Shown here in pieces: positions 1 to 63,532 of a stretch of 64,000 nt of DNA. Below the pieces are notes generated by a model. The model was not told the origin of the DNA. It made no database searches and was given only the letters and a program-made list of their open reading frames with translations. Numbering within the stretch: position 1 is the first letter of the stretch; every line of letters begins with the position of its first letter. Source of the stretch: a virus; IMG/VR virus record IMGVR_UViG_3300042013_000061, positions 64,001 through 128,000 of that record; one strand, written 5' to 3'. The position numbers and the translations under genes are program-made.

Positions 1-1043
1 ATTTCCACAAACGGGCCATACAGCGCGCCGTAGGAATTGGAAACGTTCAACACATTGCGACGATAATTCGTTGCTTTGGAAACCTCTTCGAATTCCGTAG
101 GCAGGTCGATAATCGCCATTGCATCGCCGCGAGTTTCTGCGATGGAAATCATGCGCTGCTGAATATACGGCGAAGTGAAACCACCGTTAATCAGAATTTG
201 CACTGCGAAATCGTCGGTGTTTTCGATACCTTCCCATGCAGCGATGATATCGGAATCAGAGCAACGGTTGCCGTTTTCGCCGCCGTCCAGAGTTTCGAAC
301 GTCGAAGTGCGGATATCAATCAGTGGGCAAAGTGCGTTGTTTTTAACGCGAATGAATTTCGAGTTTCCGTTAATACGGGACTCGACAAACATTTGCTGTT
401 GTTGGCCGTCAAGTTCAGCAGAGCGGCTGCACAGGTACGATTCAACCGGTACGCTGCCATTGCCTTTGTAATCTTTGAAAACTTCGACGTAGAAATGTTT
501 CGGGTTACTGAATTCCCCGACAGCGGTGCCTTGCTGGTTCGAAGGGCGCACGCGAATAGAAATGCTATCCGACCACGAACCCGGCGAAGTTGCACAGAAA
601 AACAACAGAACGTTTTCAACGCCCGGAGTGCCGACAGTGAAACCGATTTCGTTGATTGGATTTCCGAGAACACCTTTCGGGGTATTATCACCATCGTCGA
701 AATTCACCAGTTTCAGAACCGGTTCCATTGCCGCATTATCATCCACGGACAAATAGGCGCCAGCGGTCAATGCAGTTTTAACGTCAACCGCACGCTTGAT
801 ATACAGGCGCGATTCCGCAGTAAAGTGTTCAGCACAGTGCATGCTGTAACCCAATTTTGCGAAATCTTTAATGCCGAATTTGGTTTTCAAATCTTGCTTG
901 TCAGTAACAAGCGTCCATTCTTCGGTGCTGCCCATTTGCGATTCAACAACAATCGCACCAATGGAGCTAATCACCGTACCGCCGCGCTGGCTCAGGTCGT
1001 TATCCTGATCGTAAACGCCAGCACTCGTATTAGGAAATGCCAT
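1..1043 (-). CDS. Contractile tail sheath protein (5' part; runs off the left edge)
   Basis: Absent from the ORF track because no stop lies in the window. Manual translation from ATG 1043: MAFPNTSAGVYDQDNDLSQRGGTVISSIGAIVV...FFCATSPGSW...LINGGFTSPYIQQRMISIAETRGDAMAIIDLP...SYGALYGP. The N-terminal (P/A)GVY..D.S, PG.W, 'A..RGD..AI.D.P' and 'Y.ALY.P' motifs are typical of myophage sheath proteins. Confidence 0.88.
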   Translation of the reverse strand, partial: MAFPNTSAGVYDQDNDLSQRGGTVISSIGAIVVESQMGSTEEWTLVTDKQDLKTKFGIKDFAKLGYSMHCAEHFTAESRLYIKRAVDVKTALTAGAYLSVDDNAAMEPVLKLVNFDDGDNTPKGVLGNPINEIGFTVGTPGVENVLLFFCATSPGSWSDSISIRVRPSNQQGTAVGEFSNPKHFYVEVFKDYKGNGSVPVESYLCSRSAELDGQQQQMFVESRINGNSKFIRVKNNALCPLIDIRTSTFETLDGGENGNRCSDSDIIAAWEGIENTDDFAVQILINGGFTSPYIQQRMISIAETRGDAMAIIDLPTEFEEVSKATNYRRNVLNVSNSYGALYGPFVE

Positions 1044-22736: not shown

Positions 22737-23579
22737 TTAGAAGAAAACGTGGGCGCGTACACGCTCCATGAATTTTTCGTAGTAGGCCGGACGACGTGCA
22801 AAAACACGAGCGTAGTAGGCGCTGATTTGTTCGATGTTCGGAGTTGCAGCCGTTGCGATTTCGTCTTCTGGATCATCAACGATTTCGTGGTCGGCGGCGG
22901 CAATTACAATCATGTCGCGATGCACGGTTTCTTGCTGACCATTTTGACGAACGACTTGAATATCAGTAGTTGGGCTACCGTCTTCGTTGTCGATAGAAGC
23001 AACAGCGATTGCCACGTTCAAATCGCAAGACTGCTGCGAAATGTAAGTAATCAAATCGCCACCGGTTACGGTTGCGCGAGCTTGTGCGGTATCGGCGCCG
23101 ACGTTCGCATTTACGAAATCGTTATGGTCAACCGAAGCACAGGCCAGCAATTGCTGCATTACCAGATGATCGTCGGCAACAGCCGATTTAACCAGAACTT
23201 CACCGGTCGCAGTTTTGCGCAGTGCCCACAGGCATTCGGTGTCGTCCATGAACATATTTGCAGCAACGGCTTTGTAATTGCCGCGATTCGCATCACTCAG
23301 GACAACGCGCTCAGCAACAACGCCGACGATGCCTTCGAAAATGTGGGTACGTGCATCGCTGGCGAGCGAAACAAACGAACCGGTAATCGGAGTGATATTT
23401 GCGAATTGCTTTTTGATACCGGCAAACACTTGATCTTTGCTTGCAGCAACGGAAGCGGTTGCGATAATACGCATGAAACGATCATCAACCTGATACGCTT
23501 CACGAATACTTACTTCAGTGGCTTCAGATTTGACGTTGTGGGCCAAAGCCGATTGCGCACGATTGAGGGAAAAAGTCAT
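22737..23579 (-). CDS. Putative virion/head protein
   Basis: 280 aa, strong GGAG SD, own TAATTTA motif and terminator, Ala-rich. Confidence 0.55.
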   Translation of the reverse strand: MTFSLNRAQSALAHNVKSEATEVSIREAYQVDDRFMRIIATASVAASKDQVFAGIKKQFANITPITGSFVSLASDARTHIFEGIVGVVAERVVLSDANRGNYKAVAANMFMDDTECLWALRKTATGEVLVKSAVADDHLVMQQLLACASVDHNDFVNANVGADTAQARATVTGGDLITYISQQSCDLNVAIAVASIDNEDGSPTTDIQVVRQNGQQETVHRDMIVIAAADHEIVDDPEDEIATAATPNIEQISAYYARVFARRPAYYEKFMERVRAHVFF

Positions 23580-23619: not shown

Positions 23620-23626
23620 TAAATTA
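23620..23626 (-). promoter_or_regulatory. Putative late promoter motif TAATTTA
   Basis: gtTAATTTAaata about 41 nt upstream of ATG 23579. Confidence 0.6.
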
Positions 23627-28056: not shown

Positions 28057-29427
28057 TTAACCGAAAGCTGGTTTTTTGTTACCGGACTTCTTCGGAACAG
28101 CGCCACCTTTCGGTTTAGCGGCTGCTTTCGGAGCGGCCTTTGGTGCGGCTTTAGCGGCGGCTTTCGGCGCTGCTTTTGCTGCTTTTTTCGGAGCGGCTTT
28201 TGCTGGTGCAGCTTCAGCTTTTGGCTTGGCTGGACGACCACGTTTTTTCGGAGCGACTGCCGGAGCGGCTGCTTCTTTTACTTTGGCTGGGCGACCACGC
28301 TTTTTAGCTGGTGCGGCGGCTGGCGCTGCTTCAGCTTTTGGCTTGGCCGGACGACCGCGTTTCTTTGCCGGTGCTGCTGGTGCTGCTTCGGCTTTTGGTT
28401 TTGCAGGACGACCGCGTTTTTTCGCTGGAGCGGCTGGAGCAGCAGCTTCAGTTTTTACTTTCGCAGGACGACCGCGTTTTTTCGGTGCAGCGGCTGGAGC
28501 GGCGGCAACTTCAGTTTTCACTTTAGCTGGACGGCCACGCTTTTTGGCTGGAGCGGCTGGAGCAGCAGCTTCAGTTTTTGGCTTGGCAGGACGACCGCGT
28601 TTTTTCGCTACTGGAGCCGGTGCAGCATCAGCTTTTGGCTTGGCTGGACGGCCACGCTTTTTGGCTGGTGCAGCTTCAGCAGCCGGAGCGGCAGCAGGTG
28701 CTTTACGCGCTTTTTTCACAGCACCGCCGGTTTTGCCGAAGTGCTTAGTGGAAATAGCTGCGGTTTCTTTTTGTGCAGCAACTTTGCGAGCAGCAACCTT
28801 TTTAGGGTCGATGGTTTGCAGACGCTTGCCTTTCTTGGAGATTGGCTTGGCGCTGAAGTTACCGATGAAATCCTTCAGGCGGAAAACGCCGCGCTTTGCA
28901 GACTGCGCTTTGATTTTGCCGATGGTTTTCTGGTGAGTTTTCACCGCTTTCATACGCTCGCCAGCGAGTTGTTTACGCTCGGAAGCGTAACGCTGTTTCT
29001 CAGCGGCGCGCATTTTCATACGAACGGCAGGAGCGACTTTTGCAGTGCGGATTTTTTGCAGTGCTTTTTTGTGAGCACCGGAAACGGCTTGAGCCTTCGA
29101 TTTCAGTTGACCACGGATGGACTTCTGAGCGGTGACGGCTTGACGTTTCTGTTCCGAAGCGTGCTTACCAGCGTGGCGAAGTTTGCGGTTGGCTTTGTAG
29201 GCACGAACGGCTTTTTTCGCTTCAGCTTCGGTAGCACCGTGACGCATGGCACGCAGAAAAACCGAGTTTTCCAGATGCGCCAGTTTTTCCTGATGCGTCA
29301 TGGTTTTGTAACGGTTTTTTGCAACCTTGTTCAGCTTCGATTTGTTTTTGTTGCGGTATTGTTTAGCCTTTTTGGCAGCAGCGCGTGCCTCGGGGCTTTT
29401 GTCCTTACGGACGACTTTCGTGACCAT
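28057..29427 (-). CDS. Histone H1/AlgP-like basic DNA-binding protein with 8 AT-hook (KKRGRPAK) repeats
   Basis: Very K/A/R/P-rich; eight KKRGRPAK units separated by AAPAAP linkers; KAAPKAA tail; monocistronic with its own TAATTTA motif and terminator. Confidence 0.88.
   Translation of the reverse strand: MVTKVVRKDKSPEARAAAKKAKQYRNKNKSKLNKVAKNRYKTMTHQEKLAHLENSVFLRAMRHGATEAEAKKAVRAYKANRKLRHAGKHASEQKRQAVTAQKSIRGQLKSKAQAVSGAHKKALQKIRTAKVAPAVRMKMRAAEKQRYASERKQLAGERMKAVKTHQKTIGKIKAQSAKRGVFRLKDFIGNFSAKPISKKGKRLQTIDPKKVAARKVAAQKETAAISTKHFGKTGGAVKKARKAPAAAPAAEAAPAKKRGRPAKPKADAAPAPVAKKRGRPAKPKTEAAAPAAPAKKRGRPAKVKTEVAAAPAAAPKKRGRPAKVKTEAAAPAAPAKKRGRPAKPKAEAAPAAPAKKRGRPAKPKAEAAPAAAPAKKRGRPAKVKEAAAPAVAPKKRGRPAKPKAEAAPAKAAPKKAAKAAPKAAAKAAPKAAPKAAAKPKGGAVPKKSGNKKPAFG
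28210..28680 (-). repeat. Imperfect ~57-66-bp coding tandem repeat (AT-hook array)
   Basis: Repeated ggacgaccgcgtttttt / ggacggccacgcttttt units on the + strand. Confidence 0.85.
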
Positions 29428-29498: not shown

Positions 29499-29505
29499 TA
29501 AATTA
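29499..29505 (-). promoter_or_regulatory. Putative late promoter motif TAATTTA
   Basis: acTAATTTAtta about 72 nt upstream of the AT-hook gene. Confidence 0.55.
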
Positions 29506-29522
29506 GTATTATCGTGAATTAA

Positions 29523-30572
29523 TTAACTGGCCGAAATCCCCAGCCGGGCACAAGCCTTTTTAACTTCTTTTCGACCGGCTTTAATCAACTCTTTATCAAA
29601 GCCTTCTGCCACCATGAACTCTTTTAAACCAAACATTGGATCAATATCAATGTTTTCCACTTTAATTGAATCATCTTCAGAAACATTCGATTTTTTCGCA
29701 CCAGCCTTATGAATGCCCCCGGTAATGTTCGGGTATTGAATCATTAGGTCTGCTGGAATAGGAACATCTTCAGCCACGTGCAGCTTATAACGAACGTTAT
29801 CCGAGTACGTCAGCTTCTTGTAATCATTCAGATCATTAATCTCTACGTTCTGCAACGTAAAGTTTGGTTTGTTTTCAACGAACTTGTGTTGGAACGCAAC
29901 GCGGTTTCCTTCCATGCTGGCTTTAAAATGAATAAAGCCTTTTGGCAATGCTTCGCCAAAGTTTTTCTGGAATGGATTACCGCAATAAACGGCCCGCTTT
30001 GTTTTCATGAATTGGTATTGGTGAATATGCCCGGAAATAGTGAAATCGTTTTTGTGGGTTTCCAATTCATGTTTGGTTTTTAACGAACGACCGTTATCAC
30101 CAATAGCGCCGCTGTATTCAACGTGCGCAAAGTTCAATGCACCCTGTTTAGTGGACAGGGTTTTCAAGCATGGGTACGGCAGGAAATTCACCGGTACGTT
30201 TTCGATTACAACGCGTTCCGGTTTCAGGACGATTTTCAGACGCTTAAACGCTTTCGACGTTGCCAGCTTGTGCATGAAATTCATCGACGTATTTTCGATA
30301 TCACCGAAATCATGGTTGCCCATGATGTAATACGTGTAAAGGTTTTCATCGTGTCGCAGAAACAAATCGTACAGCTTGCCGTATGTATCCCAATCGAGGT
30401 CTGGTGTATCAGACAAATCGCCCGGAATAAATACGTGTTTAATACCGTTGCTATACGCGTACTGGTAAATCTTTTCCATTTCCGCCAAGATGCGATCATT
30501 TGCATCGGGGAAATGCTTGTTCAATCCGTCAAGGTGAACGTCAGAAAATGCAATGCCTTCAAGATCAGCCAC
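29523..30572 (-). CDS. sbcD: SbcD/Mre11 (gp47-like) metallophosphoesterase nuclease
   Basis: SDVHL, PGDLSD, MGNHD, FAH, SGHIH, YCGNPFQKNFGE...KGF. Confidence 0.92.
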   Translation of the reverse strand: MADLEGIAFSDVHLDGLNKHFPDANDRILAEMEKIYQYAYSNGIKHVFIPGDLSDTPDLDWDTYGKLYDLFLRHDENLYTYYIMGNHDFGDIENTSMNFMHKLATSKAFKRLKIVLKPERVVIENVPVNFLPYPCLKTLSTKQGALNFAHVEYSGAIGDNGRSLKTKHELETHKNDFTISGHIHQYQFMKTKRAVYCGNPFQKNFGEALPKGFIHFKASMEGNRVAFQHKFVENKPNFTLQNVEINDLNDYKKLTYSDNVRYKLHVAEDVPIPADLMIQYPNITGGIHKAGAKKSNVSEDDSIKVENIDIDPMFGLKEFMVAEGFDKELIKAGRKEVKKACARLGISAS

Positions 30573-31008
30573 GTTTTACTTCCACTGTGAATTGAATGTA
30601 TTTCAGGGGGCGCGAAGGTTGGAACGAATACGGCATAACCAACATACCGATCAGACCCCGACCACGCTTTTTCGCCGTGCGTTTGTTACGCAGGAATAAG
30701 TGCGTAATCCGTTCACCGTCAGCCGTGTTCCCGCCGACCAGAACGCCACGGCGATTTCCCCGTTTTTCATCATTTACAGTAAACGATTCGACGATACCTT
30801 CACCCGGCCCGCCGACAGTGAAGTCATTAATGCCACGCCGATCTATTAAATCGTCAAAGAATTTCTTGATAATTGGTTTTGCGTCTGCGGTTTCCATACC
30901 AATTGTGTGTGACAGTTGATCGCTGATATGCTGCACCATTCTGCGCACGTTGATATCGTCGATAGAGCTACGCGCTGGTATGTCGTCGAGGCCAGTGTGG
31001 TCAGTCAT
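30565..31008 (-). CDS. Stand-alone tail-sheath C-terminal-domain-like protein
   Basis: SSIDDINVRRMVQHI...FFDDLIDRRGINDFTV...FQPSRPLKYIQFTV matches sheath C-terminal consensus (INVRRL...FL..L...RGI.DF.V...P.R..EFI). Confidence 0.65.
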   Translation of the reverse strand: MTDHTGLDDIPARSSIDDINVRRMVQHISDQLSHTIGMETADAKPIIKKFFDDLIDRRGINDFTVGGPGEGIVESFTVNDEKRGNRRGVLVGGNTADGERITHLFLRNKRTAKKRGRGLIGMLVMPYSFQPSRPLKYIQFTVEVKRG

Positions 31009-31282
31009 TTTTATATTCTCGTGTGCGCAGGCAGGAACCGAAATACAGGATGTTTTTATCGAACAGGTTATTCACGAATGCCAGCCGGTCTTCGTCAAGA
31101 TCGAATCGCGCTGCAATTTCTGAGAGCTTATCGTTTGTCTTGATGTGGTAGATTCCGAAGTTTTCGACTAAGTGGCGTTCGTACTTGATTTCCGAGGCTG
31201 CGCGTTCCGGGTCACTCCACTGGATACGCTTCTCGAAAATTGCACGATCTTTTTCGTGTACATCGAATTCGTCGGCTGGCAT
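31001..31282 (-). CDS. LysM domain protein
   Basis: YHIKTNDKLSEIAARFDLDEDRLAFVNNL..KNILYFGSCL. Confidence 0.75.
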   Translation of the reverse strand: MPADEFDVHEKDRAIFEKRIQWSDPERAASEIKYERHLVENFGIYHIKTNDKLSEIAARFDLDEDRLAFVNNLFDKNILYFGSCLRTREYKND

Positions 31283-31287
31283 TTAAA

Positions 31288-31626
31288 TCACCGTAGTTTG
31301 ATTACTTGGCCCGGAAAGATCAGATGCGGATTTTCCAGATTGTTCAACTGTGCGAGAGTGCGCCACGAATGGCCGGTGCCTTCACCAATGTGCGAAAGCG
31401 TATCGCCTTCTTGCACAATGTACATGCCGTACTCTTTCGACACTTGATAACGCAGTTTTTTCTTCAGCGCTTTCAGTTCGTCGCCGGTGATTTCGTGGAT
31501 TTCCAAACCATGCACGGTCTGGCGTGCGACAGAATCTTTAATCGGAATGTTAGACGCGCTCACTGTGAGGTTGCCGTCAGTCTGAACATGCACATTGCCA
31601 GCGGAAATATCTACTTTGGTATTCAT
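31288..31626 (-). CDS. LysM domain protein
   Basis: YIVQEGDTLSHIG...GHSWRTLAQLNNLENPHLIFPGQVIKL (canonical LysM). Confidence 0.9.
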   Translation of the reverse strand: MNTKVDISAGNVHVQTDGNLTVSASNIPIKDSVARQTVHGLEIHEITGDELKALKKKLRYQVSKEYGMYIVQEGDTLSHIGEGTGHSWRTLAQLNNLENPHLIFPGQVIKLR

Positions 31627-32483: not shown

Positions 32484-32956
32484 CCCCGTCTCCCGATTCC
32501 GTAGCGTTTCATATCCACGCGGGCTTCACGCGCAGAGCGATATTCATACCAGTACGTCGAAACTTCTTTGGCGTCTGGAGCGGGGTTGCGTTCCCAAACA
32601 TAAATCATAACTTTGCCGCGCTTATGCACGAGCGAATAAATGTGTTTTGTTTGGTATTTGTAATTCGGCACGAAAACGTCGGTGATGATTGTAACGTCTT
32701 GTATGTACCCGATACTCCCGGTCAGCGCCAGTTCACCGTCAACAGGTACAGGTTCAACAGTCACACAGCCATCGGTTTCGTTGCATACTTCGCATTTACG
32801 CGCAGGCAAACCCCACGGATAAGATTTCGGCATTGTGTAAAAGCCATCACCGCGTTTCATGCGTGGCAATTCACGAGGCTTGTTCGCCAGTTCCGCCCAC
32901 TTCGCCAGAAGTTCGGGCGAGGGCATAAATGGGTCAGCAATATTCCAGCCGTTCAT
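32477..32956 (-). CDS. Hypothetical protein with CxxC
   Basis: ATG 32956 (ATGA overlap, GAGG SD). Confidence 0.6.
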   Translation of the reverse strand: MNGWNIADPFMPSPELLAKWAELANKPRELPRMKRGDGFYTMPKSYPWGLPARKCEVCNETDGCVTVEPVPVDGELALTGSIGYIQDVTIITDVFVPNYKYQTKHIYSLVHKRGKVMIYVWERNPAPDAKEVSTYWYEYRSAREARVDMKRYGIGRRGW

Positions 32957-33285
32957 ACCGATTCCTCTACGCGGGGTTTCCACATTTTGGCAAACTTCAA
33001 AACGTTCGGAACGTTATTACAGTCTACCGGCATCACAACCAGACAGGACGACTCGCCGTCACAGATTGTTTTCTCGTGGCCTTCGTGACAATCGAGAGTT
33101 TCACGAATTTTATCAAACTCACGCCAGTTAACACGCAGCACAACTTTACGAAAAGAATTGTGCAGCCAATCAATGTACGTGCCTTTGTCTTGGAACTTCA
33201 AATGCGCCGAAAGCATTGAATGTGCAACCAACGTCGGCACCATGTAATCGGGAGCGTCGTCGCGTACAGCAATATACAATTTCAT
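32953..33285 (-). CDS. Peptidyl-tRNA hydrolase type 2 (Pth2)-like protein
   Basis: MKLYIAVRDD......LVAH......W....FRKVVLRV matches Pth2 'K..IVVR.DL....GK..AQ..HA ... W...GQ.K.VL.V'. Confidence 0.7.
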   Translation of the reverse strand: MKLYIAVRDDAPDYMVPTLVAHSMLSAHLKFQDKGTYIDWLHNSFRKVVLRVNWREFDKIRETLDCHEGHEKTICDGESSCLVVMPVDCNNVPNVLKFAKMWKPRVEESV

Positions 33286-35295: not shown

Positions 35296-35495
35296 TGGCT
35301 AACTTTCTCGTGATGAACACGGGTTTCGTTAATCGAATTGGTCATGTCGTGAATGCTCGACAGCACTGCTTCGTCGCCCATCAATGCGCGGGGAATCAAA
35401 ACGTCAGAAGTGATTTCCACACCATCTACAAGAAGCAGCAGAGCATTAATCCGCCAGCCTTCTTTTTCTTCGTTGCATTTCCATTGAGTTTTCAT
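35283..35495 (-). CDS. Small hypothetical protein
   Basis: 70 aa, ATGA overlap with the sbcC stop. Confidence 0.55.
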   Translation of the reverse strand: MKTQWKCNEEKEGWRINALLLLVDGVEITSDVLIPRALMGDEAVLSSIHDMTNSINETRVHHEKVSQWPD

Positions 35496-37795
35496 TGCTC
35501 AAGCTTCACTTTCGAGACGCCTTTATGTTTCTCGACAGTCACGTAACTGCAATCGCTATGCACGTGCTTACCCTTTTGTGTAATCAGGAAAACATGCGGC
35601 ACCAGCGTGCGCAGGAACGGAATATAACGATCAGCAAAAAGCGTGATTGTTGTTTCGTCCATGTGTGCATCAGGTTCGTCGAGGATCGCGATGTTAACCC
35701 GTCGATCAGCCTTCGCCATAATCACGCAAGCGAGGAAGTGCAGCAGACGGAAACTATCGGATTCTGCGCCGGACAATTCACGGACGTCAGATACGTTACC
35801 ATTCCCCCGGTCAACGATGATGTGAACGCCATCGTCTTTTGCCACTACGCTAAACTTGAACGGCTCAGCGAAAATCAAGTTGGCAAATCGGTTGTAGTGC
35901 TGTTCCAACTGGTAAACGATTTGGTGCATCGCATGCAGTTTCAAGCCCTTGTTGCTGTAGGCTTTCGACAGTGCTTTGTACAACTGCAATTTCTTCGTCA
36001 GCGGTTCCAGCTTTTCAATCTCGCCGCTGATTTGATCGCGTTGTTTCGACAGCAGTTTGAATTCAGCGCGACGGCTACCGTGCTTAACGGAAATCTCATA
36101 CGCTTTTTCGTATTTCTTTTCTACCTTGCGCAACTTGGCGGCAGTCTCTTCAAGCTCTGCGGTCAAGCCTTTGTCTTCAGGCACTTCGTCGAATTCTGCA
36201 AGCCGCTCTTTCAGTGCTTTGATTTCGTCGAGAATTTCAGCCTGTGTTTCGATCTGTTCCAGCGTGAGCGTGGCAGAACCTTTCGGCGCTTTCGGCTTCT
36301 TCAGTTCGGACATTTGCTCGGTGATTTCATCGAAGCGTGCAGCATTTTCCAACTTGTCGTTAAGCTCTTCCAGTTCTTCGCTGGATTTCTTCAGCTTCTT
36401 TTTCAACGCGTAGTAATCACGCTCGTTGAATTTCAGTTTGTCGATGATCGCTTTGTTTGTCGTCCGCGTTTCACGGATTTCATAAGCGTGGATCATCGAC
36501 AGTAGCAAACCTTTACGCTTCTTCGCAGCCTTCAGACTTTTCTCAAGGTCTTTCAGGTTGATTTTCTGCATACAGGTCGGGCAGTTGCCGTCGTCGTGTT
36601 CGTGCAGCAAATCAGAAAGTTTCAGCGTGGTTTTCACCATGCTTAACTCTTCCTTCAGTTCTTCCATCGCGTCGAGTTTCTGTTTGTTGCAACGCGACAG
36701 GAAGCTACGCAATTCTGGCTCGGTATGATCGTCGAGGTTTTCCAGTTCACGCACGGCGGCATCGTATTCGTCACGAACCTTTGTCTGTCGTTTGTACTCG
36801 ACTTCCATCGTTCCGATTTCAGCACGCAATTCGTTAACGCGTTTTTTCAGCTTTTTGCCGCCGCCTGTATCGCCCAGTTCTTCCAGCTTCTTTGTCAGGC
36901 GCTTGGCTGTCTTCTGGTACTCGGCCAACTCTTCCTGATAATGCTCGGAAGCCTCAAGGAATTTGTATTGCTCTTTGAGTTCGGCCTTCGTGTATTTCGC
37001 TTTCTTTTGCAGCTTTGTCAGTTTCGATTTCGCAGACGAATAAAACTCCACTTGCTTCATGAGCGAGCGGAGTTCCTGAGTGCGAGCCTGCAACCGGGTA
37101 ACTTTCTTGGCCTGAGATTTCACAACCTCGGTGGCTTCGTCGAGTTCCTTTTGCCGGTGTCGATTCCAACCGTTTTTATTCAACGCGTCATTCGTGTTAA
37201 GCAGGTTTTTGCTATGCACGTCGGCTTTGTTCTGTGCGATCTTTACATCATCGACCAGCTTGTCGAAATACCGGCGCAGAACATCAAATTGATCCAGTCG
37301 CCACACGTCAGTGATATACGACATACGCGTTCGCGCAGTGCCGTACATAAAGTCGAGTTTTTTCTGCGACTGGAGGTGAACGTAGGAATACCATTCATCA
37401 GAGGTCAGCGGAATAATCTTTTCGATCCACTCACGCTGTGCCGCTTGGCCGCGCACTTCCAAATCCGTACCGTCGCGAAAGATTTTGTAGCCGCTTCCGC
37501 TTTGGCGAATCGTCCAGTCGTGGCCGAGGTTCTTCACGTCGATTTCAATGTGAGAACCTTTCGAGTGAATCCGATTTTTCTTGCGAGTATCCGCCAACGG
37601 CATTTGTTCGAAACGCACGTTGGGCAGCATGCCAAACAGAACAGATTTACCGGCGCCGTTGTTGGTCTTCTTCGAAATCAGCGAGTCACGGTTGTGGCCG
37701 CTTACAACGGTGAAGCCACAGTTATTCGTGAAATCAAATGCACCTTCTTTGTACGATACAACGCCATTGAAACGACTGCCGGTAATATCAATCAT
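35492..37795 (-). CDS. sbcC: SbcC/Rad50 (gp46-like) ATPase
   Basis: Walker A NGAGKS, Q-loop, long coiled coil, Zn hook CPTC, signature LSGAE, Walker B ILDEPDAHMD. Confidence 0.93.
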   Translation of the reverse strand: MIDITGSRFNGVVSYKEGAFDFTNNCGFTVVSGHNRDSLISKKTNNGAGKSVLFGMLPNVRFEQMPLADTRKKNRIHSKGSHIEIDVKNLGHDWTIRQSGSGYKIFRDGTDLEVRGQAAQREWIEKIIPLTSDEWYSYVHLQSQKKLDFMYGTARTRMSYITDVWRLDQFDVLRRYFDKLVDDVKIAQNKADVHSKNLLNTNDALNKNGWNRHRQKELDEATEVVKSQAKKVTRLQARTQELRSLMKQVEFYSSAKSKLTKLQKKAKYTKAELKEQYKFLEASEHYQEELAEYQKTAKRLTKKLEELGDTGGGKKLKKRVNELRAEIGTMEVEYKRQTKVRDEYDAAVRELENLDDHTEPELRSFLSRCNKQKLDAMEELKEELSMVKTTLKLSDLLHEHDDGNCPTCMQKINLKDLEKSLKAAKKRKGLLLSMIHAYEIRETRTTNKAIIDKLKFNERDYYALKKKLKKSSEELEELNDKLENAARFDEITEQMSELKKPKAPKGSATLTLEQIETQAEILDEIKALKERLAEFDEVPEDKGLTAELEETAAKLRKVEKKYEKAYEISVKHGSRRAEFKLLSKQRDQISGEIEKLEPLTKKLQLYKALSKAYSNKGLKLHAMHQIVYQLEQHYNRFANLIFAEPFKFSVVAKDDGVHIIVDRGNGNVSDVRELSGAESDSFRLLHFLACVIMAKADRRVNIAILDEPDAHMDETTITLFADRYIPFLRTLVPHVFLITQKGKHVHSDCSYVTVEKHKGVSKVKLEQ

Positions 37796-41251: not shown

Positions 41252-41458
41252 TTATTTACAGTTTCGTGCTGCTGCTTCTTCGCGAGCAACTAACACGCCG
41301 TGGATACGCGCATTACGCCAGACGTTACGCCTTGCGCGAGCGTCTATATCCTTTAACCATTGTTTGCGCTTGGCACGGCGCCCTCGAAAGAAGGCACCGA
41401 CCAGCAGTAAGAGAACGAACACAATCACCAACGCGAAAGCAAGTTGCGGATTGTTCAT
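41252..41458 (-). CDS. Small single-pass membrane protein
   Basis: N-terminal hydrophobic stretch LAFALVIVFVLLLLVGAFF followed by an Arg-rich segment. Confidence 0.65.
   Translation of the reverse strand: MNNPQLAFALVIVFVLLLLVGAFFRGRRAKRKQWLKDIDARARRNVWRNARIHGVLVAREEAAARNCK
41255..41261 (-). promoter_or_regulatory. Putative phage promoter motif CTGTAAAT
   Basis: About 30 nt upstream of the dnaX ATG. Confidence 0.65.
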
Positions 41459-44702: not shown

Positions 44703-45650
44703 TTATTTTACAGTTTTTCGCGCTTTGGCATAAGGCACAATGCTTTTCGAAATGGCTGATGCAATATCGGTACGCATTTGATTTGATTCATCAAACGATG
44801 CGGCCAGTGTACGCATATCGTATTCGCTGTATTCGACCGGGGCGTTTTCATTGCGTGTCATAACTTCGATCAAACGCAGGAATTTTGCCAGTTCAAAATA
44901 ACCATTGCGCACATAGTATTCACGGTCGTTGTAATTCATCGGTTGCGTGAACACAATGTAACGAGCGTGGCCGAGAATTTCTTTCGCACACTTGTTAATC
45001 ATTTCAGTTCGTTCGCGGGTAAACTGATCGTCGATTGATTGCGACCGTTCCCGGCGTTTCATCAATTCCGCTACGTCGGCTTTGTCTTTCATGCCGCGCA
45101 AAAATTGCGATGCGGCGTTAATGATTCGCTTCGATTGATTTTCCATGCCCCGGCCATATTGCAGGGTTTGGATTTTCTTTCCATCCAGCGCAACAGCAAG
45201 GCCCACGGCGTCTGCACTTTCACGGGCGTAGTCACGGAAAAACAAAACAGCGCTATTCGATGTTGGCGTTTTAACCGTGGCTTTTTTCCAGTGGCGTTCA
45301 TACCACAGTTCACCTACGCAAACGAATTCAACGCCGTCGCGGTAAACGGTATTGCCGAACCACTCGTAAATAGTGGACAGGTGATTTAAATAATCCACGT
45401 AGCTGTTGATATCCAGCGTGTCGAAAATCTCTTCCACGTGCTGCATCGCACTCTTCAGCATTTCTTCGTGGAATTCCATAACGCTAGACGTATCGTTTTG
45501 ATATTCACCGTCAGTCGATGCGTGGGCATACAAACAGAAGCGCAGCACTGCCTGATATTCGCCAAGGCGTGAGAACAATGCGCGGGCATTCATTTTCTGC
45601 GCAACGCGGACGTAAGAGGGTTGAAAGTATTTCATGTTTTCGTCACTCAT
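44703..45650 (-). CDS. Hypothetical protein
   Basis: 315-aa ORF following a long leader region. Confidence 0.7.
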   Translation of the reverse strand: MSDENMKYFQPSYVRVAQKMNARALFSRLGEYQAVLRFCLYAHASTDGEYQNDTSSVMEFHEEMLKSAMQHVEEIFDTLDINSYVDYLNHLSTIYEWFGNTVYRDGVEFVCVGELWYERHWKKATVKTPTSNSAVLFFRDYARESADAVGLAVALDGKKIQTLQYGRGMENQSKRIINAASQFLRGMKDKADVAELMKRRERSQSIDDQFTRERTEMINKCAKEILGHARYIVFTQPMNYNDREYYVRNGYFELAKFLRLIEVMTRNENAPVEYSEYDMRTLAASFDESNQMRTDIASAISKSIVPYAKARKTVK

Positions 45651-46120: not shown

Positions 46121-46219
46121 ACTTTACAGTTTTTAAAAGTAGGCCATTTTGCTCGAAAAACATTCCATACAAAACCCATTTGTTTCAATCATTCAAACAA
46201 AAGTCGAATAAAAGGCAAT

Positions 46220-47617: not shown

Positions 47618-48097
47618 TTAATCCCTCAGAGAATAAGCGAACTGAATTGTGCCACCGTGAGGAGAACCGCTGATGATTCGGCCTTCACCGATTGCAAACA
47701 AATCCTGCGATGCGTTAATGATCGGCGTCCACGATTCGATTTCAACCGGCGTCAAAGTAATCTTGGAATTCGGCGGACGATCAAACGACAGATAAATACA
47801 TTGTGAAGCCATCACCACGCGCACCAGTTCTTCATGGCCTTCCCACGCCTGCATTTCTTTTACACGCAAGAATTCTTGCAGGATGATATTGCGAATGGTG
47901 GCAGTGCCAATGCTCAAGGCGCGATCCAAATCGAAATTCAACCAGCCTTTCGACTTGTTAACGATTTCCCCGATTGTGTGCCCACGGAAAACCGCTAGCG
48001 ACTCAGGTTCGTTGCGCACGGAAATAGAATTGGCGGTAATCACGGGCGGTACGTTGTCGTCATGCAAATACAAACGCATTACTTGTAGGTCTTTCAT
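47618..48097 (-). CDS. Hypothetical protein
   Basis: 159 aa, ATGA overlap. Confidence 0.6.
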   Translation of the reverse strand: MKDLQVMRLYLHDDNVPPVITANSISVRNEPESLAVFRGHTIGEIVNKSKGWLNFDLDRALSIGTATIRNIILQEFLRVKEMQAWEGHEELVRVVMASQCIYLSFDRPPNSKITLTPVEIESWTPIINASQDLFAIGEGRIISGSPHGGTIQFAYSLRD

Positions 48098-49200
48098 CGC
48101 AGCTTATATCCTTTGGCAATATTTCTCAGTGGTTCCGTTGGCTGTAGCACCCGCGTAGAACAGACCCATTCCAACCGGGCCTGATCCTGCATAATCTTGC
48201 GTTCTTTGTCGCGAATTTTCAGATAGAGATTTCGTTCTGGAATACAAACGATATCACCCTCGTTTACTTCTGATACTTCAGGGCCAAAAACGATTGGAAT
48301 ATCGCTCATGGTTTGCAGGCGGTCGTAATCCAGTGTGGTCGTTTCGCCGCCGATGTTTGCGTTAATTCGCTGGATACCCAAATCGAATTCAAACAGCACG
48401 TGCGTGAAGCGTTGCGCATGCACATAAAAATCCAGCGTGGTTCCGGCGTGCTGGCGAAGGTCTTCAATCGTTAGTGCTTTACCATCCTTGCGGCATGGCT
48501 TGTCACGCAGAATAAAAAGGTCTTCGCGAATGCTGTAGGTTGCCGAATTGAAATACTTCGGAACCAGCAGCTTAAAACAAACGTAAGCGTCTGCGATTTC
48601 TTTTACAAACGCGTGCGGTGCGCTTGTGGAATCGACGTGGAAACCGTCAATGTTTTCGATATCGTAATTGGTGAACAGACGGCGCTGCAAACCGTAAGCT
48701 TGATAACCCGGCTGACGCAGCGAGCGATAACAAATCCCGCAATTGATACTGCCTTGCGAAACACCATCGTGATAATGTTCGTCGTCGTCTTCGTCAATCA
48801 AAGTTGTGATTGCGTCCAGACCTTCATTGGATTCACCGCGACCACCGCTGACTTTTACAACCACATCATCGTTCATGATTTTCTGACTGAAATCAGAACC
48901 GAACAAATCGTCGTCCTGCATTTCAATATCAATCGTATCGGTCACACGATCTTTATGCGGAATCACAGGGGCTTCAGTCGAACCGGGTTGAATCGGCACG
49001 TTTGTTTTTGAACAGGTGCAAGGCCGACCGACTAGGCGTTCAACCTGATAAAGAATTACGCCAACCGCGTTAACGGCAAGGCTGTTAGAAACCTGATGGT
49101 TGTATGCCGCGACAGTTTCATCCATACGGGCTTGCGCTTGCGTTTGAATAAAGTTTCGGGCGTGAATGCGTTTGTTGTTGGACGGGCCGCGCTTAATCAT
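48094..49200 (-). CDS. Putative head-completion/neck protein
   Basis: GRPCTC ... CGICY Zn-like motifs and C-terminal 'GDIV......YLKI' beta-barrel typical of head-closure proteins; GGAGG SD; TAATTTA motif at 49221. Confidence 0.5.
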   Translation of the reverse strand: MIKRGPSNNKRIHARNFIQTQAQARMDETVAAYNHQVSNSLAVNAVGVILYQVERLVGRPCTCSKTNVPIQPGSTEAPVIPHKDRVTDTIDIEMQDDDLFGSDFSQKIMNDDVVVKVSGGRGESNEGLDAITTLIDEDDDEHYHDGVSQGSINCGICYRSLRQPGYQAYGLQRRLFTNYDIENIDGFHVDSTSAPHAFVKEIADAYVCFKLLVPKYFNSATYSIREDLFILRDKPCRKDGKALTIEDLRQHAGTTLDFYVHAQRFTHVLFEFDLGIQRINANIGGETTTLDYDRLQTMSDIPIVFGPEVSEVNEGDIVCIPERNLYLKIRDKERKIMQDQARLEWVCSTRVLQPTEPLRNIAKGYKLR

Positions 49201-49220: not shown

Positions 49221-49227
49221 TAAATTA
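49221..49227 (-). promoter_or_regulatory. Putative late promoter motif TAATTTA
   Basis: Identical 10-mer to the site upstream of the sheath gene. Confidence 0.6.
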
Positions 49228-53288: not shown

Positions 53289-53332
53289 CTGTAAACCTGA
53301 AATATCAATTTAACAATGTACACCCTTTACAG
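53289..53332. promoter_or_regulatory. Pair of opposed CTGTAAA motifs in the divergent primase / Cas4-like intergenic region
   Basis: CTGTAAA on + at 53289-53295 and on - at 53326-53332. Confidence 0.65.
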
Positions 53333-62064: not shown

Positions 62065-62897
62065 TGACCCTTCTATCTGTGGACGGCACCAACGCAATCC
62101 ACCGGGCACACCATGCCGTCAAATACATGGAACACAAGGGCACTCCAACGAATGCAATTATCGGATTCTTTGCAATTCTGAATTCGAATTTGCGATTGAT
62201 CGGCGCGAAGAAATGTCTCGTGACCTTCGACCGAACTGGCGGACAAAACTTTCGTCAAATTCTGCATCCGTTGTACAAAGGCACACGTGACAAAGACCCG
62301 GTGAAGAGTGCTGCGCTCGCAAAGCAGGTTCCAATCATCTGCGATTTGCTAGAAGCGATGGGCATTTCGTTTGTAGGTAAAAAAGATATCGAGGCTGACG
62401 ACATTATCGGCAGCACAGCGGTCAATTACCCGGATGGAATCGCATACATCCTTTCCGGGGATAAAGACTTCGCGCAGGAATTGATTCACAAACACGTTCG
62501 TTTAATCAATCCGAACAAAAAGATCATTGTGTCCCGTAAAAACTGTAAAGAAGTATACGGAGTTCACCCAAAACACATGATTGATTACCTAATGCTTGAC
62601 GGCGATTCGATTGATAACATCGACGGCGTTCCGGGCGTTGGGCCAAAGACCGCAATTAAACTGATTGAAGAGTTTGGAAAGGCTGAAAAGATTCCATTGG
62701 ATCGTTTCCCTCCCAAATCAAAAACTGTAAATGTAACGAAACTGCTAAAGCTTAATCGAAAGCTGGTAACAATCCGTTCCGACCTGTATGATGCAAACAC
62801 GGAATTGGATTTATCAATTTCCAAGATGGACGTGAAGGAATTCACGAAAATCTGTGAACGATACCGATTGAATTCACTTTTGAAGACAATCAGATAA
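62064..62897 (+). CDS. 5'-3' exonuclease / flap endonuclease (Pol I N-terminal-like)
   Basis: VDG...HRA.HA, PTNAI.GF, FR...P.YK..R, EADDIIG, SGDKDF.Q, L.GD..DNI.GVPGVGPKTA. Confidence 0.94.
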   Translation: MTLLSVDGTNAIHRAHHAVKYMEHKGTPTNAIIGFFAILNSNLRLIGAKKCLVTFDRTGGQNFRQILHPLYKGTRDKDPVKSAALAKQVPIICDLLEAMGISFVGKKDIEADDIIGSTAVNYPDGIAYILSGDKDFAQELIHKHVRLINPNKKIIVSRKNCKEVYGVHPKHMIDYLMLDGDSIDNIDGVPGVGPKTAIKLIEEFGKAEKIPLDRFPPKSKTVNVTKLLKLNRKLVTIRSDLYDANTELDLSISKMDVKEFTKICERYRLNSLLKTIR

Positions 62898-62956
62898 ATG
62901 TGTAGATAACTACATAAACCACGGCAATACGCCAACCCTAGAAAGAGAGAAAAATC

Positions 62957-63532
62957 ATGACCGCACCAATCGTTAAAGTTTCGAAAGCTGTTGCCGCCGC
63001 CACCAAACTGCTGGCCGCTCGCACCGACGCACTGACCGCTGCAAAAGCTGACCTGACCGCTGCCAACGCTACCGCCAAGCGTCAAAGCAAACTGGTTCTT
63101 TCTGCACCGAAAGTTGTCGCCACCGTTCAAAAGAACGCTCAAGCTTCCATCGAAGGTTTCACCCAAGCCGTTGCCGTTCTGACCACCGAAGTTGCCGATG
63201 CAAAAGCTGCACTGGCGCTGGTAATCAAAACCGAACGTGACGCCGCGACCGCTGCTGCAAAAGCTGCAAAAACTCTGCAAGCACAAAAAGATCGCGATGC
63301 AAAAGCTGCACAGCGTCTGGCCGACAAAGCTGCAAAAGCTGCGCCGGTTGTTGTTGCCCCGGTTGCTGCTCCTGCTGTTAAAGGCGCACCGAAAGCCAAA
63401 GCTGCAAAAGCTGCTGCCCCTGTTGCTGCTGTGAAGGCTGCACCGAAAGCAAAAGCTCCAAAAGCCGCTGCTGTTGCCCCGGTCGCCAAAGCTGCACCGA
63501 AAGCAAAAGTTGCCAAGGCTCCAAAAGCCTAA
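62957..63532 (+). CDS. Ala/Lys-rich histone H1/AlgP/PhaF-like protein
   Basis: Coiled-coil N-terminus then KAAPKAK repeats; own terminator. Confidence 0.75.
   Translation: MTAPIVKVSKAVAAATKLLAARTDALTAAKADLTAANATAKRQSKLVLSAPKVVATVQKNAQASIEGFTQAVAVLTTEVADAKAALALVIKTERDAATAAAKAAKTLQAQKDRDAKAAQRLADKAAKAAPVVVAPVAAPAVKGAPKAKAAKAAAPVAAVKAAPKAKAPKAAAVAPVAKAAPKAKVAKAPKA

Follow-up and report, generated by a model that had tools for sequence, protein, structure and literature searches.

A predicted stand-alone homolog of the tail-sheath C-terminal domain encoded among the replication genes of a giant Lu11-like phage

We analysed a 64,000-nt stretch of DNA, referred to as the window, which is bases 64001–128000 of the 139,569-bp virus record IMGVR_UViG_3300042013_000061 (CheckV completeness 47%). 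The source is a giant Lu11-like phage. The gene studied here, which we call gene X, is a minus-strand open reading frame (ORF) at 30565..31008 of the window, has an ATG start and codes for 147 amino acids (aa) that we predict to be a free-standing paralog of the C-terminal (handshake) domain of the tail sheath. The gene for an SbcD/Mre11-like nuclease (29523..30572, minus strand; phrog_100 E-value 4e-37, Metallophos) begins with an 8-nt overlap of the gene X stop, and the gene X start is in turn overlapped by 8 nt by the stop of a gene for a small LysM protein (31001..31282, minus strand; PF01476 at 23.5 bits, cut-off 20.9). A second small LysM protein is encoded at 31288..31626 (minus strand; PF01476 E 7.1e-12) and an SbcC-like gene is found at 35492–37795. 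A preliminary description of this DNA had placed gene X among replication genes, and the region does hold, besides the SbcD-like and SbcC-like genes, a clamp loader, a DNA polymerase, helicases, a primase and topoisomerase II.

The phage has two full-length sheath proteins, which are 33% identical to each other. The gene for paralog 1 (546 aa, G000:C1:63403-65043; phrog_23 E 1.8e-72, PF17482 31.3 bits) has its 3' two-thirds in the window at 1..1043 on the minus strand and runs past the window start. This is the full-length sheath nearest to gene X, about 29.5 kb off, in agreement with the earlier estimate of about 30 kb. Paralog 2 (529 aa) lies outside the window at 42.7–44.3 kb of G000, some 50 kb from gene X. 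The tail tube gene (G000:C1:41636-42187, phrog_45 E 3.3e-20) is directly downstream of paralog 2, not paralog 1, and its product is acidic with an isoelectric point (pI) of 5.08. Paralog 1 is followed by a gene (G000 62753-63397) with a match to an unnamed family and weak matches to tail-protein and HNH families. Two sheath proteins are a feature of the group that contains PaBG, NCTB, Dickeya phage JA13 and Erwinia phage Alexandra according to passages of PMC7412058, which cite Kurochkina et al. 2018 for the two-component sheath of the PaBG/'Lupandier' group.

All three motifs that had been claimed for the 147-aa ORF can be read in its translation, and BLASTP and hhalign pair the first two with the sheath. 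INVRR (residues 19–23, codons at 30940..30954, minus strand) sits at the start of the first helix and has VNVRR as its counterpart in paralog 1. F..L...RGI.DF.V (residues 51–65, 30814..30858, minus strand) contains RGINDF, which pairs with RGINDW of paralog 1. P.RP..YI (residues 131–138) lies within the last beta-hairpin (residues 121–144, 30577..30648, minus strand), which is the counterpart of the platform strands of the sheath by both methods and holds the invariant P131. Just before this hairpin is a family-specific insert of a strand and a basic helix (residues ~95–120, 30649..30726, minus strand; LRNKRTAKKRGRG), which appears as a gap opposite the sheath in hhalign.

Gene X is a real gene under purifying selection. 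A copy that is 83% identical occupies the same position in a 300-kb IMG/VR contig (L007), and comparing the two by Nei-Gojobori counting gave a nonsynonymous rate (dN) of 0.13, a synonymous rate (dS) of 0.65 and a dN/dS of 0.20.

We looked at the relationship to sheaths with single profiles and then with alignments of the family. A search with PF17482 (Phage_sheath_1C) had been suggested as a check. The profile does match gene X, with an E-value of 0.047, but at 14.2 bits the match is under the gathering cut-off of 26.9. PF17482 matches four of the eight members of the gene X family at E ≤ 1 (best E 0.0053), and phrog_23 matches five of the eight, reaching E 0.0021 with gene X itself through two weak collinear stretches at profile positions 357–385 and 439–464. 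With BLASTP, gene X aligned with both cognate sheaths at E 0.03–0.5; residues 121–144 align with residues 493–516 of paralog 2 at E 0.029. Searches of the PDB sequences with phmmer and hmmsearch gave a best E-value of only 0.67, and there was no usable match for gene X in the ESM Atlas and none in NCBIfam. We also obtained matches of residues 54–101 to TLP1_add_C and MSMEG_3727_PQQ-assoc (E 0.002–0.02), which we judged to be noise because they are below cut-off and have no support from fold or context. TLP1_add_C matches four of the eight members, at E 0.0016, which is about as weak as the sheath-family matches.

For the profile comparisons we used an alignment of the eight family members (A1), an alignment of eleven that adds Lu11, HRDY3 and PaBG (A2), and a sheath alignment of 28 sequences (the two cognate sheaths, Lu11 paralog 2 and 25 orthologs). 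hhalign aligned A1 with the last 147 sheath residues at 88.9% and P 2.4e-6. The other sheath thirds gave P of 0.13–0.3, and the minimum P from a reversed alignment and 29 shuffles was 0.022. With A2 the probability rose to 95.1% and the P-value fell to 3e-8 over 99 columns, with residues 12–146 of gene X placed against residues ~432–535 of paralog 1; here the other sheath thirds gave P of 0.19–0.63 and 30 column shuffles a minimum of 0.033. The six distant members alone aligned with the same region of the sheath at P 5.7e-6. The relationship also appears from the other side. The sole A1 match in the 266-kb genome of Erwinia phage Alexandra is the C-terminal part of Alexandra_162 (E 0.014), a sheath ortholog (BLASTP E 4e-79), and a hidden Markov model (HMM) of the cognate sheath C-terminal region ranked gene X top of 1761 six-frame ORFs once the sheath frames are set aside, with an E-value of 0.068 and the next at 1.6. 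At equal depth gene X is nearer to paralog 1 (P 9.3e-6) than to paralog 2 (P 1.8e-3), and the lineage of paralog 1 is probably its source.

We modelled gene X with AlphaFold2 (predicted local distance difference test, pLDDT, 69.8) and compared the model with 48,161 solved chains using VIA-align. The first two ranks were sheaths, 3hxl_A (Z 7.7, root-mean-square deviation 2.7, 88 aligned residues, chain 325–439) and 5li2_A (Z 6.4). A model of a distant member, P0006 (pLDDT 68.9), ranked three sheaths first (5li2_A Z 7.6, 7b5h_AO 6.5, 7adz_2A 5.9), and its top 50 holds more entries whose titles name sheaths, tails or injection systems. Both models, which were built on the same eight sequences, align with the C-terminal part of each sheath chain, and so the structural match to this domain that had been anticipated was obtained twice. 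Proteins with the gp25 fold rank after the sheaths at Z 5.0–5.9 (6gj1_D 5.9 and 5.8, 2ia7_A 5.3 and 5.0, IraD 6od1_B 5.3 and 5.0). In BFVD, Foldseek found only uncharacterised proteins (I1TQB4, UPI00155E09A5 and S5VM52 of PaBG). The gene X model has helices at 12–32, 40–58 and 109–119 and strands at 62–65, 75–83, 86–94, 100–106, 123–130 and 138–144. On the aligned profiles and predicted folds, we consider gene X to be a stand-alone homolog of the sheath C-terminal domain, encoded outside the tail module.

The likeness is to PF17482, that is, to paralog 1, DSY3957 (3hxl) and phi812 (5li2): two helices are followed by a beta-sheet platform, and the motifs NVRR, RG[IL]xD[FW] and P..P...I come in the same order. 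hhalign pairs the two helices, FTVNDE with ETICDE, the 86–94 strand and the last hairpin, where GMLVMPYSFQPSRPLKYIQFTVEV of gene X stands against NDMAIDFVIDPEIPASRASLTADI of the sheath. Unlike sheaths, gene X stands alone, with no PF04984 domain, no N-terminal motif and nothing past the last strand; it is encoded among replication genes and has in addition a basic strand-helix (about 26 residues, ~95–120) and a loop of 10 residues (66–75), neither of which has a sheath counterpart in hhalign.

The insert is where the family is most alike. In A2, residues R107, R110, A112, R117 and P131 are invariant (M1 was flagged too, being the start codon), and V91, L106 and G116 are nearly so. With R107, R110, A112 and R117 all in the insert, the basic helix is the family's best-conserved element. 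The pI of residues 66–122 is 11.25, and the insert region is modelled with a pLDDT of 84–88. We observed that AKKRGRG in this helix, present in close relatives only, resembles the KKRGRPAK repeats of a protein encoded nearby (28057–29427, minus strand), an AT-hook-like protein of 456 aa with many such repeats and no PHROG family at E ≤ 1e-4.

What gene X lacks can be read against the assembled sheath. In passages of PMC10457771, the C-terminal domain of a lower-ring subunit is a platform that is extended to a four-stranded sheet by two neighbouring upper-ring subunits, one of which contributes its N-terminus and the other its C-terminus, and a figure legend there aligns the sheath initiator with the sheath C-terminal domain. 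Gene X ends 2–3 residues past the last aligned strand, where paralog 1 has 11 more residues that are presumably its C-terminal donor arm. At 147 aa, with no similarity to the other sheath thirds, gene X does not have what defines a full-length sheath (PF04984 plus PF17482, donor arms). Since both the sheath N-terminus and the C-terminal extension are missing, gene X would be a platform without donor arms. The preliminary description had spoken of a truncated sheath subunit. The homology bears out a lone sheath C-terminal domain, but a recent truncation does not fit an old, diverged paralog family that is under purifying selection and has gained a basic insert.

The family is small. We found five clusters at E ≤ 0.001 in a collection of 5.8 billion proteins and four representatives in a library of 1.84 billion, with eight members in all when a profile was used. 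The A1 profile matched Lu11_0112 (E 1.8e-21), HRDY3 XDJ15189 (E 6.2e-17) and PaBG_00050 (E 7.2e-8), which gives a homolog in three of the six named complete genomes searched. Searches of 50,697 phage records by tblastn, in which three different members served as queries, reached only Lu11 and HRDY3, and with gene X as the query Lu11 alone; megablast of 4 kb against phages gave no match. Our search for further genomic contexts returned only L007 among viral contigs and none among metagenome and genome contigs. Conservation nevertheless reaches PaBG and three metagenomic lineages at ~30% identity. Assembled contigs of four sequencing runs carry relatives of the gene X region.

Gene X carriers that we checked (its own genome, Lu11, and PaBG as given in passages of PMC7412058) all have two sheath paralogs. 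We considered a tie between gene X and the two-sheath trait and rejected it, because NCTB, JA13 and Alexandra have no gene X and are members of the two-sheath group in the passages of the same paper.

A protein of this size and fold class could be the starter of sheath assembly. Gp25-type initiators (T4 gp25, P2 gpW and TssE of type VI secretion systems, T6SS; PF04965) resemble gene X in size, in fold class and in having an acceptor-only platform, and by analogy gene X may work like a gp25-type acceptor. Identity with the initiator we rejected. None of the eight members matches PF04965 at E ≤ 1, there is no other sequence or profile similarity (hhalign of A2 with six gp25-like proteins of the group gave P 0.042 and a probability of 1.3%), and the clade has a separate gp25-like gene. 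The candidate in Lu11 codes for 129 aa at ~175.6 kb, with PF04965 at 18.8 bits, below cut-off, and is adjoined by a PAAR-like gene (20.9 bits, also below the Pfam cut-off). Homologs of this gp25-like gene are in all five of the other genomes searched, three of which have no gene X. In our own record, which is half a genome, PF04965 had no match and the gp25-like gene was not found. Gene X itself sits in a cassette between sbcC and sbcD and not in the baseplate module. We conclude that it is an accessory gene and not the gp25-type starter. We also rejected a baseplate remnant made up of a gpX-like LysM protein and a gp25-like protein: the LysM domain is fused to PTH2 in Lu11 and HRDY3, and the linkage is by shared descent, not independent.

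The stretch from sbcC to sbcD is a cassette of small genes whose content differs among Lu11, HRDY3, PaBG and NCTB. In the window, the gaps between genes from 34969 down to sbcD range from -146 to +12 nt. In Lu11, sbcC is followed in turn by four small genes, a fusion of PTH2 and LysM that is annotated as endolysin, the gene X homolog, an annotated promoter and sbcD. HRDY3 has 16 small genes with the homolog second from sbcD (one gene between), and NCTB has four other genes. The PaBG cassette holds three different genes, and its gene X homolog is elsewhere, at 27.5 kb, two genes from a gene annotated as DprA-like.

Two promoter-like motifs bear on expression. TAATTTA occurs four times in the window against 7.1 expected, and all four copies (1121–1127, 23620–23626, 29499–29505 and 49221–49227) are on the minus strand, intergenic and just upstream of gene starts, namely those of sheath paralog 1, ORF 22737–23579, the AT-hook-like gene and ORF 48094–49200. 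As had been noted earlier, gene X has no TAATTTA upstream; there is no copy in the cassette between gene X and sbcC. CTGTAAA occurs 19 times against 6.1 expected, a three-fold excess that none of 100 shuffles reached, and 18 of the 19 sites follow local transcription, usually with an A/T-rich run before them (for example 41255–41261, 44707–44713, 46123–46129, 53289–53295 and 53326–53332). Several copies are intergenic and upstream of replication genes, and one lies inside the 'putative middle/late promoter' annotated in Lu11 between the gene X homolog and sbcD. Gene X contains a copy at 30773..30779 (minus strand, in the codons F-T-V-N), ~200 nt upstream of the sbcD start and conserved in L007, which may be an internal promoter; TAATTTA may be a second promoter class. 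Judged by these motifs, gene X looks co-expressed with the replication and recombination genes and not with the sheath.

Our preferred reading, to which we assign a probability of about 0.35, is that gene X encodes a putative non-virion protein that binds parts of contractile tails and modulates sheath polymerisation. We infer each binding step and its consequence from the homology, fold, domain limits, insert, selection, distribution and context given above. The protein would be cytoplasmic and non-stoichiometric. Its platform would take free sheath arms, its basic helix would bind an acidic surface such as the tail tube, or both, and the binding would hold back or cap polymerisation, whether it is the two-component sheath of this phage that is being built or a foreign machine. 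The platform hairpin is present and the donor arms are absent, which makes the anatomy compatible with each of the jobs first proposed for this protein (cap or poison, chaperone, decoy), and the acidic tube (pI 5.08) and basic insert region (pI 11.25) are opposite in charge. We think it unlikely that gene X makes a dedicated acceptor-only 'handshake platform' that captures free sheath arms or coats acidic tubes, which would be the first dedicated soluble regulator or inhibitor of sheath polymerisation. If it does, the platform could control when the phage assembles its two-component sheath, or disable host tailocins, T6SS or co-infecting myophages.

Several results weigh against the modulator. 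Neither phage NCTB nor Dickeya phage JA13 has an A1 match at E ≤ 10, and Erwinia phage Alexandra has no family match except its sheath, so gene X is not needed to build the two-component sheath, which these phages share according to passages of PMC7412058. Its absence from these relatives, taken with the conserved residues of the insert, speaks against gene X being essential for assembly. The insert, and not the platform, holds most of the family-invariant residues, and the NVRR motif is lost in distant members. The model has six predicted strands where four align in the sheath domain, and the extra strands at 62–65 and 100–106 could occupy the platform in cis, so that no place would remain for foreign arms. 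With the family profile, the cognate sheaths gave no match at E ≤ 10. The VIA-align Z-scores are below 8 throughout, a range flagged as a possible common arrangement. A Foldseek search of the PDB had no match at E ≤ 0.001, nor was a sheath among the rows listed, which means that the likeness was found in the exhaustive VIA-align search only.

Some of these results also bear on whether there is a real homolog to explain. The resemblance could be chance, or gene X a functionless relic of a partial duplication, and the sub-threshold Pfam and PHROG matches, the equally weak match to the unrelated TLP1_add_C, the empty Foldseek result for the PDB and the VIA-align Z-scores below 8 would fit that. 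We regard this as largely refuted and very improbable given the hhalign P of 3e-8 with clean controls, the P of 5.7e-6 for the distant members alone, the two models that both rank sheath C-terminal domains first, the dN/dS of 0.20 and the conservation to PaBG and three metagenomic lineages. A more serious competitor is that the sheath fold serves only as a stable frame, with the basic insert binding an acidic partner, be it nucleic acid or something else, during replication, recombination or take-over of the host and with no link to tails. The insert contains the invariant residues R107, R110, A112 and R117 together with L106 and G116, which are nearly invariant, and it belongs to a region of pI 11.25; gene X is translationally coupled to sbcD and in an operon with sbcC, the clamp loader and the AT-hook-like protein; the PaBG homolog is two genes from the DprA-like gene; and the sheath motifs decay in distant members. 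On the other hand, no nucleic-acid-binding family in Pfam, PHROGs or NCBIfam matched, the insert alone (residues 74–120) matches unrelated small units at Z 4–5 in VIA-align, the homolog is not linked to sbcD in PaBG and has one gene between it and sbcD in HRDY3, and P131 and the platform hairpin remain conserved. We hold this possible and would bet against it sooner than for it; even so, the odds of an unrelated function exerted through the basic insert come close to those of the modulation of sheath assembly.

Gene X might still act in the tail. Structural genes are scattered in jumbo phages, every carrier of gene X that we checked has two sheath paralogs, and sheath initiators have the same fold (6gj1_D, Z 5.9 and 5.8; 2ia7_A, Z 5.3 and 5.0), all of which would suit a minor virion component. 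In phages of the Lu11 and PaBG types, such a component could be an extra adaptor derived from the sheath, or a second initiator, that sits at one end of the two-component sheath. We find this doubtful, as gene X is absent from NCTB, JA13 and Alexandra of the two-sheath group, the gp25-like gene has homologs in five of five other genomes, gene X is in a hypervariable accessory cassette, and it has no TAATTTA of the kind that precedes sheath paralog 1. The homolog is not among the 14 gel bands of the PaBG virion proteome in passages of PMC7412058, but the smallest band is 18.9 kDa and the gel would miss a protein of ~17 kDa, so the proteome is compatible with a stoichiometric tail component. Lastly, an early-made mimic of the inner domain of the sheath could occupy a host immune sensor. 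The location of gene X fits such a decoy, being in a variable cassette of small genes and not in the late structural module, and so does a narrow, patchy distribution typical of accessory genes. A surface that is sensed should persist, yet the sheath motifs decay while the new insert is invariant. A defence system with a sensor for the sheath C-terminal domain is not known to us, and no search was aimed at such sensors; we put a decoy well down among the explanations.

Contractile injection machines, including phage tails, tailocins and T6SS, all have the sheath C-terminal domain as their connector. To our knowledge, this domain is found outside full-length sheaths solely as the gp25/TssE starter. 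A conserved and selected stand-alone copy with a new basic surface indicates that the domain can be detached and re-used. The anti-adaptor IraD of E. coli (6od1_B), which we take to be a member of the GPW_gp25 family, is a precedent for re-use of the fold outside tails and matches both models (Z 5.3 and 5.0). Unlike gene X, it is a bacterial regulator and not a phage gene, and we saw no sequence relation between them. Should the gene X protein bind sheath arms or tubes, it would offer a natural way to act on sheath polymerisation and could serve to study or block contractile machines; if its function is another one, a structural domain would have been recruited to a non-structural job in jumbo phages. 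Duplication of the sheath gene is an established trait of this phage group in passages of PMC7412058. Unlike the PaBG pair of full-length virion sheath proteins, gene X is a third, domain-only derivative. We did not find such a derivative described in the titles and abstracts from our literature search or in passages of PMC7412058, PMC7824862 and PMC10457771; the two full-length paralogs are already known.

A few more observations concern the cassette around gene X. In one metagenome contig of a relative (X4, record 16, 2927 nt), 375 unrelated letters replace the first LysM gene upstream of gene X (the swapped region corresponds to 30965–31288 of the window), while gene X and the flanks are kept, which points to local gene turnover beside gene X. 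The genes called endolysins in Lu11 (Lu11_0113, L008 5179–5805) and HRDY3 (L015 3877–4512) are fusions of PTH2 (peptidyl-tRNA hydrolase) and LysM without a lysozyme domain, and their counterparts in the window are separate small genes for PTH2 and the two LysM proteins (32953–33285, 31288–31626 and 31001–31282). The same Lu11 cassette also holds a second sheath-derived piece: the first 29 residues of Lu11_0114 (L008 4671–5171, 166 aa) are 41–45% identical to residues 491–519 of the orthologs of sheath paralog 1 (BLASTP E ~1e-5, sheath C-terminal HMM E 4.9e-9), and the remainder of the protein is an HTH_37 domain.

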